Shown one piece after another: positions 3,919 through 45,531 of a DNA stretch of 55,129 nucleotides; positions within the stretch are counted from its first letter, which is position 1; each line of letters opens with the position of its first letter. The DNA comes from Candidatus Micrarchaeota archaeon (GTDB lineage Archaea > Micrarchaeota > Micrarchaeia > Anstonellales > J096). Under the pieces are notes generated by a model. That model ran no database searches, had not been told where the DNA came from, and was given only the letters and a program-made list of their open reading frames with translations. Location: contig CAYXNY010000038.1 of assembly GCA_964467175.1 (NCBI GenBank), positions 1 through 55,129 on the forward strand, given 5' to 3'. A program made the translations under genes and the position numbers.

Positions 3919-4015
3919 ATCCATCACTCTTTTAAATCTTTTCTGAACAAAAAGATAGAATTACTTTAGGTTTAGATGCCGGGGTGGCGGAATCCGGTAA
4001 CGCGTACGCCTGGAA

Positions 4016-4062
4016 TAAACTTTCTTCGGGTTGCCAAGAAAGTTTAATCAAAGAAAATGGAA
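4016..4062 (+). other. tRNA-Ser intron 1 (anticodon loop, nominal 37/38)
   Basis: 47-nt insert between CTGGAA and A-GCGTA. Boundaries can slide within the duplicated GGAA. Contains the hairpin ACTTTCTT-CGGGTTGCC-AAGAAAGT shared with the other inserts. Confidence 0.6.
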
Positions 4063-4094
4063 AGCGTATGCCCTCACGGGCTCATGGGTTCAAA

Positions 4095-4146
4095 GAACCT
4101 TTCTTCGGGTTGCCAAGAAAGGTTTCATCCAAAGAAGGTTTGAATA
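4095..4146 (+). other. tRNA-Ser intron 2 (T-loop, 59/60), canonical BHB
   Basis: Central helix TTCA(4089-4092)/TGAA(4141-4144). Bulges AAG(4093-4095) and TAT(4145-4147). Inner helix AACCTT(4096-4101)/AAGGTT(4135-4140). Excision restores TTCAAAT. Confidence 0.8.
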
Positions 4147-4183
4147 TCCCATCCCCGGCGATGGCAACGCTCAGTTTGGTGGT

Positions 4184-6388: not shown

Positions 6389-6413
6389 TTTTCTTATTCT
6401 TTAATTTATGTTT

Positions 6414-6497
6414 GCAGGGGTAGCCAAGCGGTCAAAGGCGCAGGGTTTAGGACCCTGTCTCTTAGTGGGTTCGCAGGTTCGAATCCTGCCCCCTGCA
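6414..6497 (+). tRNA. tRNA-Leu(UAG), no intron
   Basis: Acceptor GCAGGGG/CCCCTGC plus A. Anticodon stem CAGGG/CCCTG with loop TTTAGGA. Long variable arm. T arm GCAGG-TTCGAAT-CCTGC. Confidence 0.9.
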
Positions 6498-6501
6498 AAA
6501 T

Positions 6502-23251: not shown

Positions 23252-24808
<1,557 letters not shown>

Positions 24809-24895
24809 AAAAAAGGAAATGCAAGGGGCCCTTCTCTGAATAAACCTTGAAGCCAAACCAAACAAACCAAAATTTCTTTTTTATTAAAACTTAAA

Positions 24896-26761: not shown

Positions 26762-29560
26762 TCATCCCTTCACAACTGCTATCGGCCTTAATTTCGCAAC
26801 GATATTGCTTATTCCTGCAAGCTGCACCGCATGCACAACCTCATCAATATCTTTATAAGCATCCGGTGCCTCTTCAGCTGCAACGCTCCATGTAGCGGGC
26901 TTCACTACTATCCCCCTTTCTCCAAGCTCCCTTACCACCTGTTCTCCTCTATGTTTTCTTATCGCCTCATGCCTGCTCATCACTCTTCCGGCACCATGGC
27001 ATGTGGAGCCGAAGCTAACCTCAAGGCCCTTAGGATTTCCGACGAGAACATAGCTTGCGGTTCCCATGCTTCCAGGTATTATTACCGGCTGCCCTATATT
27101 CATGTATTTTTTTGGCAGTTCTTTCCTTCCAGCAGGAAAAGCCCTTGTGGCTCCTTTTCTATGCACAATCAAATTCATATTTTTCCCATCAACAATATGC
27201 TCTTCGAATTTTGCAATGTTATGCGCAACATCGTAAACTATTTGCATAGAGTCCATTACATTTGAGCCATAAACCTTTCCGAAGCTCTCCCTCACCCAGT
27301 GCATTATCATCTGCCTGTTTGTGAAGGCGAAATTCACCGCGCATTTCATCGCCTTTATATATGCCTCTCCTTCTTTGCTGTTTACGGGCGCGTATGCGAG
27401 CTCAGGGTCTGCCAACCGTACATTGTTTTTCTTCGCCCATCCCATCACAACATTTATGTAATCGCTTGCAACCTGATGGCCAAACCCCCGCGAACCGGTA
27501 TGGATCATTACAACAATCTGCCCTTCGTAAAACCCGAATGCCTTTGCAACCTCCGGCAGATGGATTTTTTCAACATACTGAATTTCTAAGAAATGGTTTC
27601 CTGCGCCGAGCGTTCCAAGCTGTGGTTTTCCCCTCTTCATTGCTGTTGGACTGATTTTTGAAGGGTCTGCACCTTCAATACAGCCGTATTCCTCTATCCC
27701 TTCTTTGTCCTCCTTCCATCCGTAGTCGTTCTCAATTGCCCAGTCCACTCCGCGCACCATCACTTCGTTGAGCTCGTCTTCGCTCAGCCTCACCTTTCCC
27801 TCGCTTCCGACTCCGCTAGGAACGTTTTTGAAAAGCTCCTGCACAATCTCCCTTATTTTCGGCTTAACTTCCTTCTGCTCCATATTCGTTAGAAGCAGCC
27901 TGACGCCGCAGTTTGAAACAACCACACCATTTGCAACGAATCTATGCGAATCCTCAACTGTGAAATCGTACACCTCTCCTTTATAATGTCCTTTGCGTAT
28001 TTCGATTATCGGTGAAACAAGCGCACCGAATATACTATAGTACCCCACCTGTTCCTTAAGGAATTCTCTAAAGCTTGGAATGGAAAGCGGCGCCCTTGGT
28101 TTTTTGTTTTCATAGTAAGCCCTTTCTATAAATCTTTTGTTCGCCCATTTTGAAGAAAACATCTCCTGCAGCTCTGCCAAGGAAAAGCCCTTTTTCTTGT
28201 ACTTTCTTATTTTTATTCTGATCTTCTCCCGCTCTTCTCTATAAAGTCTTTTCAGACCTATGTAAAGAACAGCGGCCATTGCAGCCACCATTCTCTTTTC
28301 ATTATACTCAAATCCTATTTTTCTGTAAAGCTTCTCTATGTTCTCCTCCCTTCCGCCTATGCCCATCCTCAGCCTTATTTTTTTGCCTTTCCTTTCTGCT
28401 ACCTTTATTTCTCCAACATCCACACCAAATTCATCGAGCAGTTCTGCGATATCAAGAAGGAAGGCCCTTGCGTTTTTCTCCATCCTTTTTATTTTGTTCA
28501 TGTTTATCTTTGGAATGTAAAAGCCTGTTTTTGACGAGGTGCTTGGGGAGGAAAGCTCTGCCCCAAAAAACCCTGCCAAGTACAGCCTCTTTATCCATAG
28601 AGGTGCTTTCTTTATCCACTCTGGCACTCTGAACTCTGTTTCCGTTTTGTTCCCAACCGGTGCTCCCAAATAAATCAGCTTCTCGACAAACTCTTTTGAA
28701 TACACATGAAGCTCTGCTGTTCTCGAAACAAACTCCCTGTTCTTTATTCTGTGCTTTCTTGTTCTTTCCACAAGATGCGCATGGTATCCAAGTTTTTCAA
28801 CATCCTTTTTCATTTTTTCTAAATCCGTTCTTTTGCCGAAAAATATCCCCCTCAGTTTTTTGCCGCAATGGGTTAGCGTCCCATTCCCGGTGAGGTATCC
28901 TATAAGTTTTGCATAGATCGCAAGCTCCTCCTCATTCTCAGCAAAATACTCATATTCCGCTCCTTCAAAAGGATAAACCAGAAGTTTTTCATCTTCTTTA
29001 ACTTCATGAGGCATCATCCTTCCTCTTATGGTTATGAGGGGATGGTCTTGGGTGAGCTTAACCGTTCCGGCCAGTGTTATAATCTCATACACCGCGCCGT
29101 CGTATTTTTTGTGCATAAAATAGGTCGCCCTCCCTTCTTCGTACCCCGTTAAAACATCAGCATTTCCTTCAAGAAGAACAACACCATTTTTTTGATATAT
29201 CTCATGGAAGTATTCTTTGAACTCATTTATTCTCTTCCAATACCCCAAAGGAGACAGTATTCTGCTCTCCGGTAGCAAGCAGTTTATGTCATAACCAACA
29301 CCACCGGGAGACACTATTCCATCTTCGGCAGGAAACGCAGCCACCCCTCCGATCGGAAACCCGTACCCCTCGTGCCCGTCCGGCATCAGCAGGGCATTCT
29401 TCACAATGCTTGGTAGCCCGGCGACATTCTTCAGTTGCCATATCGTCCTGTCCTTCTTCATCTGCCCCAGCATTTTTTCAGTTGCAAAAATTATGCCGGG
29501 AACTTTCATTCCCTCCTCTTTAAATTCCCATGTCGCCTTTCCAATCTCCTTAAACTCCAT
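26762..29560 (-). CDS. rtcB: RtcB RNA 3'-phosphate ligase (tRNA-splicing ligase), intein-containing precursor
   Basis: RtcB motifs (MPDGHEGYGFPIGGV, GAGNHF, HTGSRGFGHQ, CHGAGR). 932 aa in total; the exteins sum to about 475 aa. Confidence 0.9.
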   Translation of the reverse strand: MEFKEIGKATWEFKEEGMKVPGIIFATEKMLGQMKKDRTIWQLKNVAGLPSIVKNALLMPDGHEGYGFPIGGVAAFPAEDGIVSPGGVGYDINCLLPESRILSPLGYWKRINEFKEYFHEIYQKNGVVLLEGNADVLTGYEEGRATYFMHKKYDGAVYEIITLAGTVKLTQDHPLITIRGRMMPHEVKEDEKLLVYPFEGAEYEYFAENEEELAIYAKLIGYLTGNGTLTHCGKKLRGIFFGKRTDLEKMKKDVEKLGYHAHLVERTRKHRIKNREFVSRTAELHVYSKEFVEKLIYLGAPVGNKTETEFRVPEWIKKAPLWIKRLYLAGFFGAELSSPSTSSKTGFYIPKINMNKIKRMEKNARAFLLDIAELLDEFGVDVGEIKVAERKGKKIRLRMGIGGREENIEKLYRKIGFEYNEKRMVAAMAAVLYIGLKRLYREEREKIRIKIRKYKKKGFSLAELQEMFSSKWANKRFIERAYYENKKPRAPLSIPSFREFLKEQVGYYSIFGALVSPIIEIRKGHYKGEVYDFTVEDSHRFVANGVVVSNCGVRLLLTNMEQKEVKPKIREIVQELFKNVPSGVGSEGKVRLSEDELNEVMVRGVDWAIENDYGWKEDKEGIEEYGCIEGADPSKISPTAMKRGKPQLGTLGAGNHFLEIQYVEKIHLPEVAKAFGFYEGQIVVMIHTGSRGFGHQVASDYINVVMGWAKKNNVRLADPELAYAPVNSKEGEAYIKAMKCAVNFAFTNRQMIMHWVRESFGKVYGSNVMDSMQIVYDVAHNIAKFEEHIVDGKNMNLIVHRKGATRAFPAGRKELPKKYMNIGQPVIIPGSMGTASYVLVGNPKGLEVSFGSTCHGAGRVMSRHEAIRKHRGEQVVRELGERGIVVKPATWSVAAEEAPDAYKDIDEVVHAVQLAGISNIVAKLRPIAVVKG
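27911..29281 (-). mobile_element. intein (457 aa) with LAGLIDADG homing-endonuclease domain, inserted in RtcB
   Basis: Splits the conserved GVGYDIN|CGVR. Starts CLLPES and ends VVVSN, followed by +1 Cys. Block B is LTQDHPL. LAGLIDADG-like LIGYLTGNG and YLAGFFGAE. Boundary codons were checked in the DNA. Confidence 0.85.
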
Positions 29561-40192: not shown

Positions 40193-40660
40193 ATGGAACT
40201 ATTCACCGTAAGCAGCTCTCCGAAAAAACACCTTGCCATAATCTGGCTGGTTACCGCAGCCTTGCTTATATTCTTCCTTGCGCTTTCGAGGATTTTTGAT
40301 GCCCCCCTATGGCTTTATCTTCTTGTGCTGGTACTGGCGTTGGTTGCAAGCGCATTTGCAGTGGTATACGCAAAAACAATAACACTCGCGCTTAAAGAGA
40401 ACGAAATTCTATTCGCAAGGGGCATCCTCACCCGGAGCACCACGACGATACGCTACAACAGAATAGACAATGTAAAGAAAATAAGGAGCATTTTTGATAT
40501 GGTTCTTGGTCTGGGCACTTTGGAAATAGATACGCCTGGAAAAATAGAGCGCGAAATTTTTATAAAAAACTTGGATATAAATGACCTGCTTAAAGTTCGC
40601 GATCTCTTGTCTGAGAAGATGAAGGGAGAGTATGATTTTTACAAAACCAGAAAGGACTGA
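40193..40660 (+). CDS. membrane-flanked PH-domain protein (bPH_2 / YdbS-like)
   Basis: Two TM helices then ...RYNRIDNV...SIFDMVLGLGTLEIDT..., typical of the family. Confidence 0.6.
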   Translation: MELFTVSSSPKKHLAIIWLVTAALLIFFLALSRIFDAPLWLYLLVLVLALVASAFAVVYAKTITLALKENEILFARGILTRSTTTIRYNRIDNVKKIRSIFDMVLGLGTLEIDTPGKIEREIFIKNLDINDLLKVRDLLSEKMKGEYDFYKTRKD

Positions 40661-41075
40661 GGAGATTTTCCAGCTCGGGATCGGAAGAGAAACAGAAAAA
40701 GGGCTTGGGCTCCACAGCATAGAAGCGGCGTATCTCGTAAAAAAAGGAATAATAAAAACAAAGAAAAGTTTTGAAAAGCTTATAGCCGGCAATGAGGATG
40801 GGTACGCGGTTTACGAGGATCTGCGGAGCAAGGGATATGTTGTGAGGCTGAGCGAAGGAAGCGAATTTTTCAGGATAAACAGAAAGGGCTTCAGAAAAAA
40901 TGAGGAAAGGACAACCTATATCCTTAAAGTTATAAAATCGCCGTTTTCTCTGAGCGAAAAGGAGCTTTTCGATGACCTTCAAATTTCTGTGAAGATGAGG
41001 AAGCAGCTTGTTTATGCAATTGTAGCTGGAAAGGAAATAAAATACATTACTTTTGGGAGGATGACATTTCCTTAA
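40632..41075 (+). CDS. tRNA-splicing endonuclease-like protein, probably a non-catalytic (structural) subunit
   Basis: By-eye alignment to M. jannaschii EndA from memory. IEAAYLVKKG matches LVEALYLINLG and YAVYEDLRSKGYVV matches LVYKDLRTRGYIV. The catalytic Tyr and His positions read N and R/T; the Lys (MRKQL) is retained. Confidence 0.6.
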   Translation: MIFTKPERTEEIFQLGIGRETEKGLGLHSIEAAYLVKKGIIKTKKSFEKLIAGNEDGYAVYEDLRSKGYVVRLSEGSEFFRINRKGFRKNEERTTYILKVIKSPFSLSEKELFDDLQISVKMRKQLVYAIVAGKEIKYITFGRMTFP

Positions 41076-42889: not shown

Positions 42890-42961
42890 TGTTTTAAACT
42901 CCTCTACTCTTTAATTTTCTCAGGGCCCGTAGCTCAACTTGGACAGAGCGCTCGGCTTCGG

Positions 42962-42986
42962 ATGCACTCTCCTAAAAGCAGGAGCG
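42962..42986 (+). other. tRNA-Arg intron 1 (anticodon loop 37/38)
   Basis: 25-nt insert with hairpin CTCC-TAAAAGCA-GGAG. The boundary can slide by 1 nt. Confidence 0.65.
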
Positions 42987-43008
42987 ACCGAGCGGTTGGG
43001 GGTTCAAA

Positions 43009-43060
43009 GAACCTTTCTTCGGGTTGCCAAGAAAGGTTTCATCCAAAGAAGGTTTGAAAC
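43009..43060 (+). other. tRNA-Arg intron 2 (T-loop 59/60), canonical BHB
   Basis: 50 of 52 nt are identical to tRNA-Ser intron 2. TTCA(43003-06)/TGAA(43055-58), bulges AAG and ACT, AACCTT(43010-15)/AAGGTT(43049-54). Confidence 0.8.
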
Positions 43061-43075
43061 TCCCCTCGGGCTCGC

Positions 43076-43339
43076 ATGCAGTCGCAGAAAGAAAGGGCAG
43101 AAAAAGACATAATAATGCTTTCGAAGCTTTTAGAGTATTTTATGAATTCTGGGCTGGACAAAAAATATCCGGATGCTTTTGAATGGGCTAAAAACTACTA
43201 TGCCGATGCCGGGCACTACTACAAAAAAAAGGACTATTTCTCCTCTTTCGGATGTGCAAACTACGGATACGGAATTCTAGATTGCGTTTTGATAAACGAG
43301 AAGATAAAGGAAAAGGTTTTGAAAGAGCTAGGGCTCTAG
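43076..43339 (+). CDS. small DUF357-like protein
   Basis: Pattern ...YYADAGHYYKKKDYFSSFGCANYGYGILD resembles the archaeal DUF357 family. Weak call. Confidence 0.4.
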   Translation: MQSQKERAEKDIIMLSKLLEYFMNSGLDKKYPDAFEWAKNYYADAGHYYKKKDYFSSFGCANYGYGILDCVLINEKIKEKVLKELGL

Positions 43340-45367: not shown

Positions 45368-45490
45368 TGCCGCAGGCCGGATTTTCAAACCCTTTTCCGC
45401 TGAAACCCTTTTAGCAGCCCAAAAAGGGCTCTTTGAACCAGCAACACCTCGGTCTTCAGCCGAGTGCTCTCCCGGGTTGAGCTACTGCGG
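45368..45490 (-). tRNA. tRNA-Phe(GAA) with T-loop intron
   Basis: Reverse complement: acceptor GCCGCAG/CTGCGGC plus A. D arm GCTC/GAGC. Anticodon stem CTCGG/CCGAG with loop CTGAAGA. T arm GCTGG-TTCAAAT-CCGGC after excision. Confidence 0.85.
45382..45430 (-). other. tRNA-Phe intron (T-loop 59/60), BHB with compensatory changes
   Basis: GAGCCCTTTTTGGGCTGCTAAAAGGGTTTCAGCGGAAAAGGGTTTGAAAA. Same architecture as the Ser and Arg copies, with CCTT/AAGG replaced by CCCTT/AAGGG. Confidence 0.75.
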
Positions 45491-45531
45491 CGCAAAAGCA
45501 GATGTTTTTTATCAGCAGTCTTTTTAAAATG

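Follow-up and report, generated by a model that had tools for sequence, protein, structure and literature searches.

How does a genome cope with a broken T-loop in what appears to be its only tRNA-Phe gene? The question is raised by a locus on contig CAYXNY010000038.1 (GenBank assembly GCA_964467175.1), a 55,129-nt stretch of DNA from a hot-spring Candidatus Micrarchaeota archaeon of the order Anstonellales. This whole stretch, a single contig of the assembly, is called the window below; the assembly itself comprises 944 kb in 50 contigs, with 44% GC and an estimated completeness of 88.8%. An earlier note, made from the letters of the window, had described a structured 49-nt insert at position 59/60 of a minus-strand tRNA-Phe gene. 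The present analysis indicates that this insert is very probably a genuine archaeal protein-spliced intron with a bulge-helix-bulge (BHB) motif, located in the T-loop of the only detected tRNA-Phe gene, and a member of an intron family. The motif, the family, the covariation, the enzyme genes and the conservation of the intron in the genus were observed directly. The genome under study is referred to as G000, and two congeneric genomes as G001 and G002.

An interrupted tRNA-Phe gene

The tRNA-Phe(GAA) gene occupies positions 45368..45491 of the minus strand, is 124 nt long including the intron, and encodes no CCA. Its limits were set from the sequence and from the cloverleaf obtained after intron removal, with G1 at 45491 and the discriminator A73 at 45368; the span of 45368..45490 proposed earlier is right at the 3' end and one base short at the 5' end. 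The acceptor stem (GCCGCAG/CTGCGGC), the discriminator A, a D-arm, the anticodon arm (CTCGG-CTGAAGA-CCGAG) and the T-stem (GCTGG/CCGGC) are all present, and the T-loop is broken after TTCAAA. Exon 1 (45432..45491, minus strand) covers tRNA positions 1-59 in 60 nt, and exon 2 (45368..45381, minus strand) consists of U60, the T-stem 3' strand CCGGC, the acceptor 3' strand and A73. Without the intron the gene is 74 nt long and folds as a cloverleaf at -31.7 kcal/mol, and this product of in-silico splicing was called tRNA-Phe GAA by ARAGORN.

The unspliced gene was missed by ARAGORN both with and without intron mode, which reported only a tRNA-Leu in the whole window. The Rfam tRNA model scored 24.8 bits at the locus, below its 29-bit cut-off, and mis-paired the 3' half. 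At the level of the whole genome, 22 tRNA genes were detected by ARAGORN and 23 matches above cut-off by Rfam; a genome of this kind needs about 40 or more tRNAs. Standard finders thus miss tRNA-Phe and most tRNAs of this organism, and the genome seems to lack tRNA-Phe because T-loop introns go unrecognised. No second tRNA-Phe was found in this genome, either by a search with exon 1 (1 match) or by ARAGORN. Exon 1 is identical (100%) in G000, G001 and G002 and is matched once per genome in all three, and the earlier concern that mature tRNA-Phe might arise only from another locus found no support in these searches.

The bulge-helix-bulge motif and two competing folds

A BHB scan of the locus returned 12 candidates, and a single one, 45431..45382, had 8/8 flanking pairs. 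Its frame is a strict hBHBh' motif that places the cut between TTCAAA and T, that is, at position 59/60. The insert is a 50-nt intron (45382..45431, minus strand) of subfamily A of the mini-intron family, matched by an intron-only profile at E 2.7e-10; its position had been assigned correctly before, and its length of 49 nt is corrected to 50 nt by the scan.

The outer helix h is the T-stem itself, with 5/5 base pairs between the 5' strand GCTGG (45438..45442; this and the following elements are on the minus strand) and 45380-45376. The central helix H is exactly 4 bp long and pairs TTCA, the T-loop nucleotides 54-57 (45434..45437), with the intronic TGAA (45384..45387, read from the sequence and the BHB scan); all four positions were found to be paired in 46/46 family copies. 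According to the same scan, the 5' bulge consists of A58 A59 / G (45431..45433, with a predicted cut at 45432/45431) and the 3' bulge of A A / U60 (45381..45383, with a predicted cut at 45382/45381). Across the 46 copies, the 5' bulge is AA/G in 33 and the 3' bulge AA/T in 38. The cut position within a bulge would follow the BHB rule.

On the intron side, the 5' arm AGCCCTTTT (45422..45430) has two possible partners, both copies of AAAAGGGTT. Pairing with the 3' copy (45388..45396) gives the helix h', 9 bp with one G-U, and the splicing-competent fold S1, assigned from covariation and folding. Pairing with the central copy (45404..45412) gives an alternative hairpin, S2, with 9/9 pairs. The central segment of other subfamily-A copies reads AAAAGCGYT, which results in a C/C mismatch, whereas the Phe copy pairs throughout. 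The BHB-constrained fold was computed at -23.0 kcal/mol, within 2 kcal/mol of the minimum free energy fold at -25.0. The helices AGCCCTT(TT)/(AA)AAGGGTT and CCCTTTT/AAAAGGG compete for the same 5' strand, 45430-45422, and are mutually exclusive alternatives, since one strand is common to both. The bulges, the TTCA/TGAA helix and both arm pairings named in the earlier note were therefore all located in the Phe sequence, but the architecture in which the two arm helices form together is not compatible with a single 5' strand. Overall, as far as can be read from the sequence, the intron conforms to the strict archaeal BHB criteria of a 4-bp helix, two 3-nt bulges, outer helices and a cloverleaf on removal.

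Is the pairing maintained across the family?

The paired arms were compared with shuffled controls in three sets of copies. In the 12 copies of this genome, 97.2% of cells are paired in fold S1, compared with 85.7 +/- 1.4 after shuffling, a value reached by 0/500 shuffles. Both-sided changes occur in 8/18 pairs, including 3/9 in h' and 1/4 in the central helix; four of the eight lie in the T-stem and show merely that the hosts are tRNAs. The S2 hairpin gave 93.8% paired cells against 80.5 +/- 1.5 (0/500), with both-sided changes in 3/10 pairs and a recurrent C/C mismatch in 6/12 copies. The covariance model proposed earlier was then built from the copies. The 65 model-aligned copies that it retrieved from several genomes are 96.2% paired, compared with 82.4 +/- 0.6 (0/500 shuffles reach this value), and show double changes in 17/18 pairs, with 8/9 in h' and 4/4 in the central helix.

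An alignment-free count was anchored on the splice sites of 46 T-loop introns. These come from six genomes and represent 22 arm haplotypes. Pair counts were taken from the alignment-free count, because the rows of a 40-copy MAFFT alignment are shifted against each other by one column at their 3' end. The first seven h' pairs were found to be 92.2% paired against 82.9 +/- 1.1, with 0/2000 shuffles reaching the observed value. The arm haplotypes include AGCCCTT/AAGGGTT (8 copies), AACCTTT/GAAGGTT (5) and AGCTTTC/GAAAGCT (4). Pairing also changes in concert across the splice junction: exon position 57 and its intron partner are AT in 25 of the 46 copies, GC in 14 and GT in 7. In the 35 long forms, the central partner pairs with its own 5' arm at 8.03/9 positions, compared with 7.22 +/- 0.10 for arms of other haplotypes (0/500). 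The 5' arm therefore co-varies with both 3' partners in the long-form introns.

These counts bear out the compensatory changes reported earlier, as pairing is kept through double changes beyond shuffled controls in both h' and H, and the signal was not lost at 46 and 65 copies. The view that structure rather than sequence is under selection is likewise supported by the shuffle-tested pairing in these two sets.

A family of introns in tRNA and rRNA genes

The genome-wide survey of 59/60 introns suggested in the earlier note was carried out with a strict T-loop scan. The scan gave 56 rows, 16 of which were accepted as tRNA genes on the basis of a GC-rich acceptor stem together with an ARAGORN call after in-silico splicing, or by sequence reading. 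The other 40 rows were discarded, their "stems" being AT-rich and a tRNA body lacking, and looser first scans (2484 and 163 rows) returned mostly chance matches. Thirteen of the accepted genes carry short family introns (50-53 nt, one of 96 nt) and three carry introns of 138-145 nt; one further long T-loop intron, on contig C36, came from a splice-and-ARAGORN scan. The multi-intron genes Ser GGA, Ser CGA, Thr CGT, Trp and Gly TCC were identified by eye, automated splicing having failed. The family thus occupies at least 13 T-loops of the genome; anticodon loops and the 16S rRNA gene hold related copies.

A profile of the intron alone was built without the T-arm, the central-helix strand and the bulges. 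Genome-wide it gave 20 matches at E<=3.4e-4, and 20/20 lie in tRNA genes, in a tRNA-Arg fragment array on contig C9 or in the 16S rRNA gene; a 21st match (E 0.026) is likewise within a tRNA gene. The 12 short T-loop copies, found in 12 different tRNA genes, have a mean column identity of 78%, much of which reflects recent common descent or copying and not selection. Two subfamilies can be distinguished. Subfamily A, CCCTTTT...AAAAGCGYTTCAKCGGAAAAGG, holds the Phe intron and in total 7/12 of the short T-loop copies, and subfamily B, AACCTTTCTTCGGGTTGCCAAGAAAGGTTTCATCCAAAGAAGG, holds the Ser and Arg copies of the window. Near-identical B-type copies occur in the unrelated tRNAs Ser GGA, Arg TCG, Arg CCT and Thr CGT. 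The Phe intron, earlier taken for a diverged member, does belong to the family, but it is no outlier: genome-wide it is typical of the larger subfamily. Family members in anticodon loops were found in Trp, Glu, Ile, Tyr, Ser GGA, Ser CGA and Gly TCC; the profile matches for the last two are weak (E 0.027 and 0.099), and the assignment was made mainly by sequence reading.

Three of the four tRNA genes of the window, Ser, Arg and Phe, are interrupted at 59/60, and Leu is intact, as had been stated earlier. The tRNA-Ser(GGA) gene (3978..4160, plus strand; covariance-model matches of 85.1 bits and E 3.4e-4) contains a 52-nt subfamily-B intron in its T-loop (4095-4146) and a family-like element in its anticodon loop (~4005-4068). 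The tRNA-Arg(TCG) gene (42923..43074, plus strand), located by the scans, contains a 52-nt subfamily-B T-loop intron (43009-43060) and a 25-nt anticodon-loop intron. The uninterrupted tRNA-Leu(TAG) gene lies at 6413-6498 (ARAGORN). A permissive Rfam scan of the whole window revealed no tRNA beyond these four, and two blastn-short matches, at 43309 and 52117, were rejected as tRNAs, being coding sequence.

A 45-nt family element with a BHB frame lies in the 16S rRNA gene (gene 23252-24809; element 23959..24003, plus strand; intron-only profile E 1.1e-7). It has a GGCG/CGCT helix and bulges AA/C and AA/G, and sits in a GGCGAA/GGC loop, where 46 nt are found in place of 1 in the small-subunit rRNA model. 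Its core is near-identical to the intron in the anticodon loop of the C47 tRNA-Trp gene.

Could the insert instead be a miniature mobile DNA element that disrupts the gene, leaving tRNA-Phe as a pseudogene? The many repeats of the element in the genome, the failure of standard tRNA detectors at the locus and the truncated tRNA-Arg 3' fragments that carry the element on contig C9 would all fit this idea. It is nevertheless very improbable: the locus is the sole tRNA-Phe locus found in three genomes, with the same insert site and an identical exon 1, the insert fits a BHB frame exactly and leaves a perfect cloverleaf when removed, none of the 20 profile matches falls outside an RNA gene, and compensatory changes keep the pairing.

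The array on C9 (11100-11480, plus strand) begins with an intact tRNA-Arg(GCG) that has no intron; behind it, a spacer and the 3' part of this tRNA are repeated three times in tandem. Two of the three repeats carry a T-loop intron, and their T-stem is degenerate. The array may be the scar of integration and excision or of recombination, or may be an assembly effect.

Distribution among relatives and probable exchange between genes

How widespread is the intron? Thirty tRNA-Phe loci were inspected, and 29 were readable: three, all from the genus, contain the family intron (50, 50 and 51 nt in the three genomes), three contain other inserts at the same site (G019, G027 and G035), and 23 are uninterrupted, including 14/14 from sister genera. 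At E<=0.01, the family model found 23 places in G000, 18 and 20 in the congeneric genomes and 16 in one genome of another family, with a few matches in ten more genomes; in total, 15/41 genomes, this one included, have matches. At the same threshold no match was found in 16 sister-genus genomes of the same family. In a wider draw of the order, a match at E<=1e-8 was obtained in 16/151 genomes, this one again among them. DNA contigs at the locus were taken as evidence of presence only, and no RNA run containing the locus was found. Contigs from the likely source sample span it, and another one, 244 nt long and from a separate study of a hot spring, covers the intron with both of its junctions at a single letter's difference. 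Contigs whose match ends at 45432 were rejected as spliced or intron-less alleles and come from relatives whose tRNA-Phe is uninterrupted.

Each of the three Phe introns is closer to introns of other tRNAs than to the other Phe introns. Their nearest neighbours, all non-orthologous, have 88-94% identity; the sole Phe-Phe pair in the nearest-neighbour lists is G001-G002, at 86%. Introns at the same site can also differ between genomes. With orthology of sites judged from identical T-stem and acceptor strings, Arg TCG carries a 52-nt B-type intron in G000 and a 34-nt one in G001, and Pro TGG introns of 138 and 38 nt, respectively. These differing subtypes at orthologous sites, together with the non-orthologous neighbours, fit putative copying or conversion between genes.

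It was asked whether the family could instead be old and purely vertical, with one gain per tRNA and no ongoing copying between genes. The shared 59/60 occupancy of about nine tRNAs in G000 and G001, recognised by their T-stem and acceptor signature, and the occupied Phe site in all three genomes of the genus are what such a history would leave. However, orthologous sites differ in subtype and length, the Phe introns have non-orthologous introns as their closest relatives, near-identical B-type copies sit in the four unrelated tRNAs named above, and the 16S element hardly differs from the tRNA-Trp intron. The family was also not found in the 16 sister-genus genomes, yet it occurs in scattered other families of the order. 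A strictly vertical history is accordingly improbable, and exchange between genes is preferred.

In G001 and G002 there are short forms, 29-38 nt long, that consist only of the 5' arm, the loop, one 3' arm and the central helix; the hairpin and the central helix are thus the indispensable core, because these forms keep nothing else. At the other extreme, a 90-nt T-loop intron in G002 (C36:26011-26117, L082) is a tandem duplication of a unit of about 45 nt. The occurrence of doubled 90-nt and of 29-38-nt forms suggests that intron length changes by recombination between the repeated arms.

Does the excised intron have a function of its own, for instance as a stable circular RNA or a guide? Such a role would account for the unpaired block TTCAKCSRAAA and the duplicated 3' arm. 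In subfamilies A and B, this block separates the two 3'-arm copies and is conserved and single-stranded, and the covariation is three-way, linking the 5' arm to both partners. The block and the second arm are, however, absent from the 29-38-nt forms that occupy the same sites, a third subtype in G002 (CAGCTTTCTTT...GTTGGCAAAGAAAGC) lacks TTCATC, and Rfam scans of the window, at the gathering threshold and at E<=0.5, returned SSU rRNA and tRNA only. There is little chance of an additional small-RNA function.

Splicing machinery and a proposed pathway

A 375-aa EndA open reading frame on contig C20 matches the ARMAN-2 epsilon-2 endonuclease structure 4FZ2_A over its full length at E 7.9e-86 (residues 8-375 vs 14-387), and Pfam detects N- and C-terminal endonuclease domains in it. 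The genome is predicted to encode a three-unit epsilon splicing endonuclease of the ARMAN-2 type. The window adds a single-unit splicing-endonuclease paralogue of 147 aa, identified by homology (40632..41075, plus strand), which lies 2 kb from tRNA-Arg and may be catalytic or a partner subunit. It also contains the gene of the RNA ligase RtcB (26762..29560, minus strand; RtcB E 9.8e-167) as a single 932-aa frame interrupted by an intein. The insert comprises about 430 residues, and an Intein_splicing domain at residues 119-550 splits the RtcB domain.

In the proposed pathway, the T-stem (49-53/61-65) of the precursor would serve as the outer helix, the 4-bp central helix would arise from U54-A57 and the UGAA near the 3' end of the intron, the two 3-nt bulges would consist of A58-A59-G and A-A-U60, and the intron arm AGCCCUUUU with its 3' partner AAAAGGGUU would close the motif. 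The three-unit epsilon-type endonuclease encoded on C20 would cut both bulges, and the RtcB encoded in the window would join the exons, which would restore the T-loop UUCAAAU. Family copies would be exchanged between genes or resized through gene conversion or other copying at the DNA level, and selection would maintain the pairing required for excision. The intron would fit any tRNA, because on the exon side its helices involve nothing but the T-stem and the near-universal TTCR.

Some points weigh against the reading of the insert as a spliced intron of this family. What is said of splicing, of the cut sites and of the mature tRNA is predicted from sequence. Both pairings of the 5' arm are supported, so that the fold seen by the enzyme may be S1 or S2. 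Because the copies are related, independent events are fewer than the counts of co-varying cells suggest, and the figures given above are measures of maintained pairing; the 65-copy alignment came from a covariance-model search of relatives and is fitted to the model structure. The identities between nearest neighbours rest on about 50 nt and a difference of a few bases. A second, uninterrupted tRNA-Phe gene could still lie in the missing part of the genome, because the genome is 88.8% complete.

Comparison with known systems

What distinguishes this family from introns already described? In ARMAN-2 (Candidatus Micrarchaeum acidiphilum), a BHB intron at 59/60 was reported in pre-tRNA-Cys GCA, as were introns at 53/54 and 59/60 in pre-tRNA-Pro GGG, and its epsilon-2 endonuclease cuts strict as well as relaxed motifs (PMC3239211); the structure of this enzyme is 4FZ2 (PMC3488258). 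The phylum-level group, the 59/60 position, the strict hBHBh' motif and the three-unit enzyme architecture are common to ARMAN-2 and the present genome. Unlike in ARMAN-2, the host here is tRNA-Phe and the intron belongs to a multi-copy family in at least 13 T-loops, with no such family described in the parts of PMC3239211 considered here, and the genome has the additional 147-aa endonuclease paralogue.

Paralogous tRNA intron families have been described in Thermoproteales, where similar, BHB-bounded introns occur across isoacceptors and spread at the DNA level was inferred (PMC4090602, as far as covered here). Very similar introns in different isoacceptors, the BHB requirement and the probable DNA-level spread are shared with the present family. 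The hosts and enzymes differ, being DPANN Micrarchaeota with epsilon-2 here and Crenarchaeota with alpha2-beta2 there, and the concentration at 59/60, the duplicated 3' arm with its long and short forms and the single 16S copy are features of the present family. In the literature searched, which did not include Fujishima 2010 or the supplements of PMC3239211, no paralogous intron family was found described for Micrarchaeota. The kind of intron is already known, from the 59/60 introns of Micrarchaeota and the paralogous families of Thermoproteales, and the Phe copy is a new member.

The motif also resembles that of canonical introns at 37/38. In both cases a 5-bp stem carries a 7-nt loop with a cut site, predicted in the T-arm, after its sixth nucleotide, loop nucleotides 1-4 form a 4-bp helix with the intron, and the bulges are 3 nt long. 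The arm is different, the T-arm here and the anticodon arm there. No tRNA-specific adaptation would be needed in the T-arm, because what the exon contributes to the central helix is the near-invariant TTCR and not a set of anticodon-dependent bases.

The Phe case leaves the knowledge of how such introns are cut unchanged. It does provide a well-populated set of 59/60 introns with covariation, drawn from a second Micrarchaeota order, a DPANN counterpart to the intron-family expansions of Thermoproteales, and a natural substrate panel for a broad-specificity epsilon-2 endonuclease, with a strict motif, an alternative fold, and long and short forms.

A more far-reaching and rather unlikely interpretation is that the family is an actively spreading, self-contained "T-arm homing" mini-intron. 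Such an element may enter any tRNA, and a small change of its 3' tetramer may open other RNAs to it, such as 16S rRNA; its duplicated 3' arm may create competing folds and, through recombination of repeats, the forms of about 50, about 30 and 90 nt. By a bolder extension, filled T-loops may break up the segment from the T-arm to the 3' end of tRNA genes that is commonly targeted by integrating elements. If this were true, the tRNA-Arg 3'-fragment array on C9 would be a scar of such a conflict.

Further observations on interrupted tRNA genes

Some other interrupted genes of this genome were recorded along with the short family. The long T-loop introns at 59/60 (138-146 nt) are located at C22:8350-8565, C45:40912-41123, C47:29478-29751 and on C36, in tRNA-Gly, tRNA-Pro(TGG), tRNA-Trp and probably tRNA-Ile, and all end in ...GTCTGGTGGAAA. 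At the end of contig C14 (1-200, minus strand), a tRNA-Leu(CAA) gene has a family-like element in its anticodon loop and a T-loop insert that runs off the contig. The tRNA-Thr(CGT) gene on C7 (14228-14600, minus strand) contains an anticodon-loop intron of about 300 nt with two copies of GGCACCTAACCCTTTTAGGTGCTGTGCC, in addition to a B-type T-loop intron.

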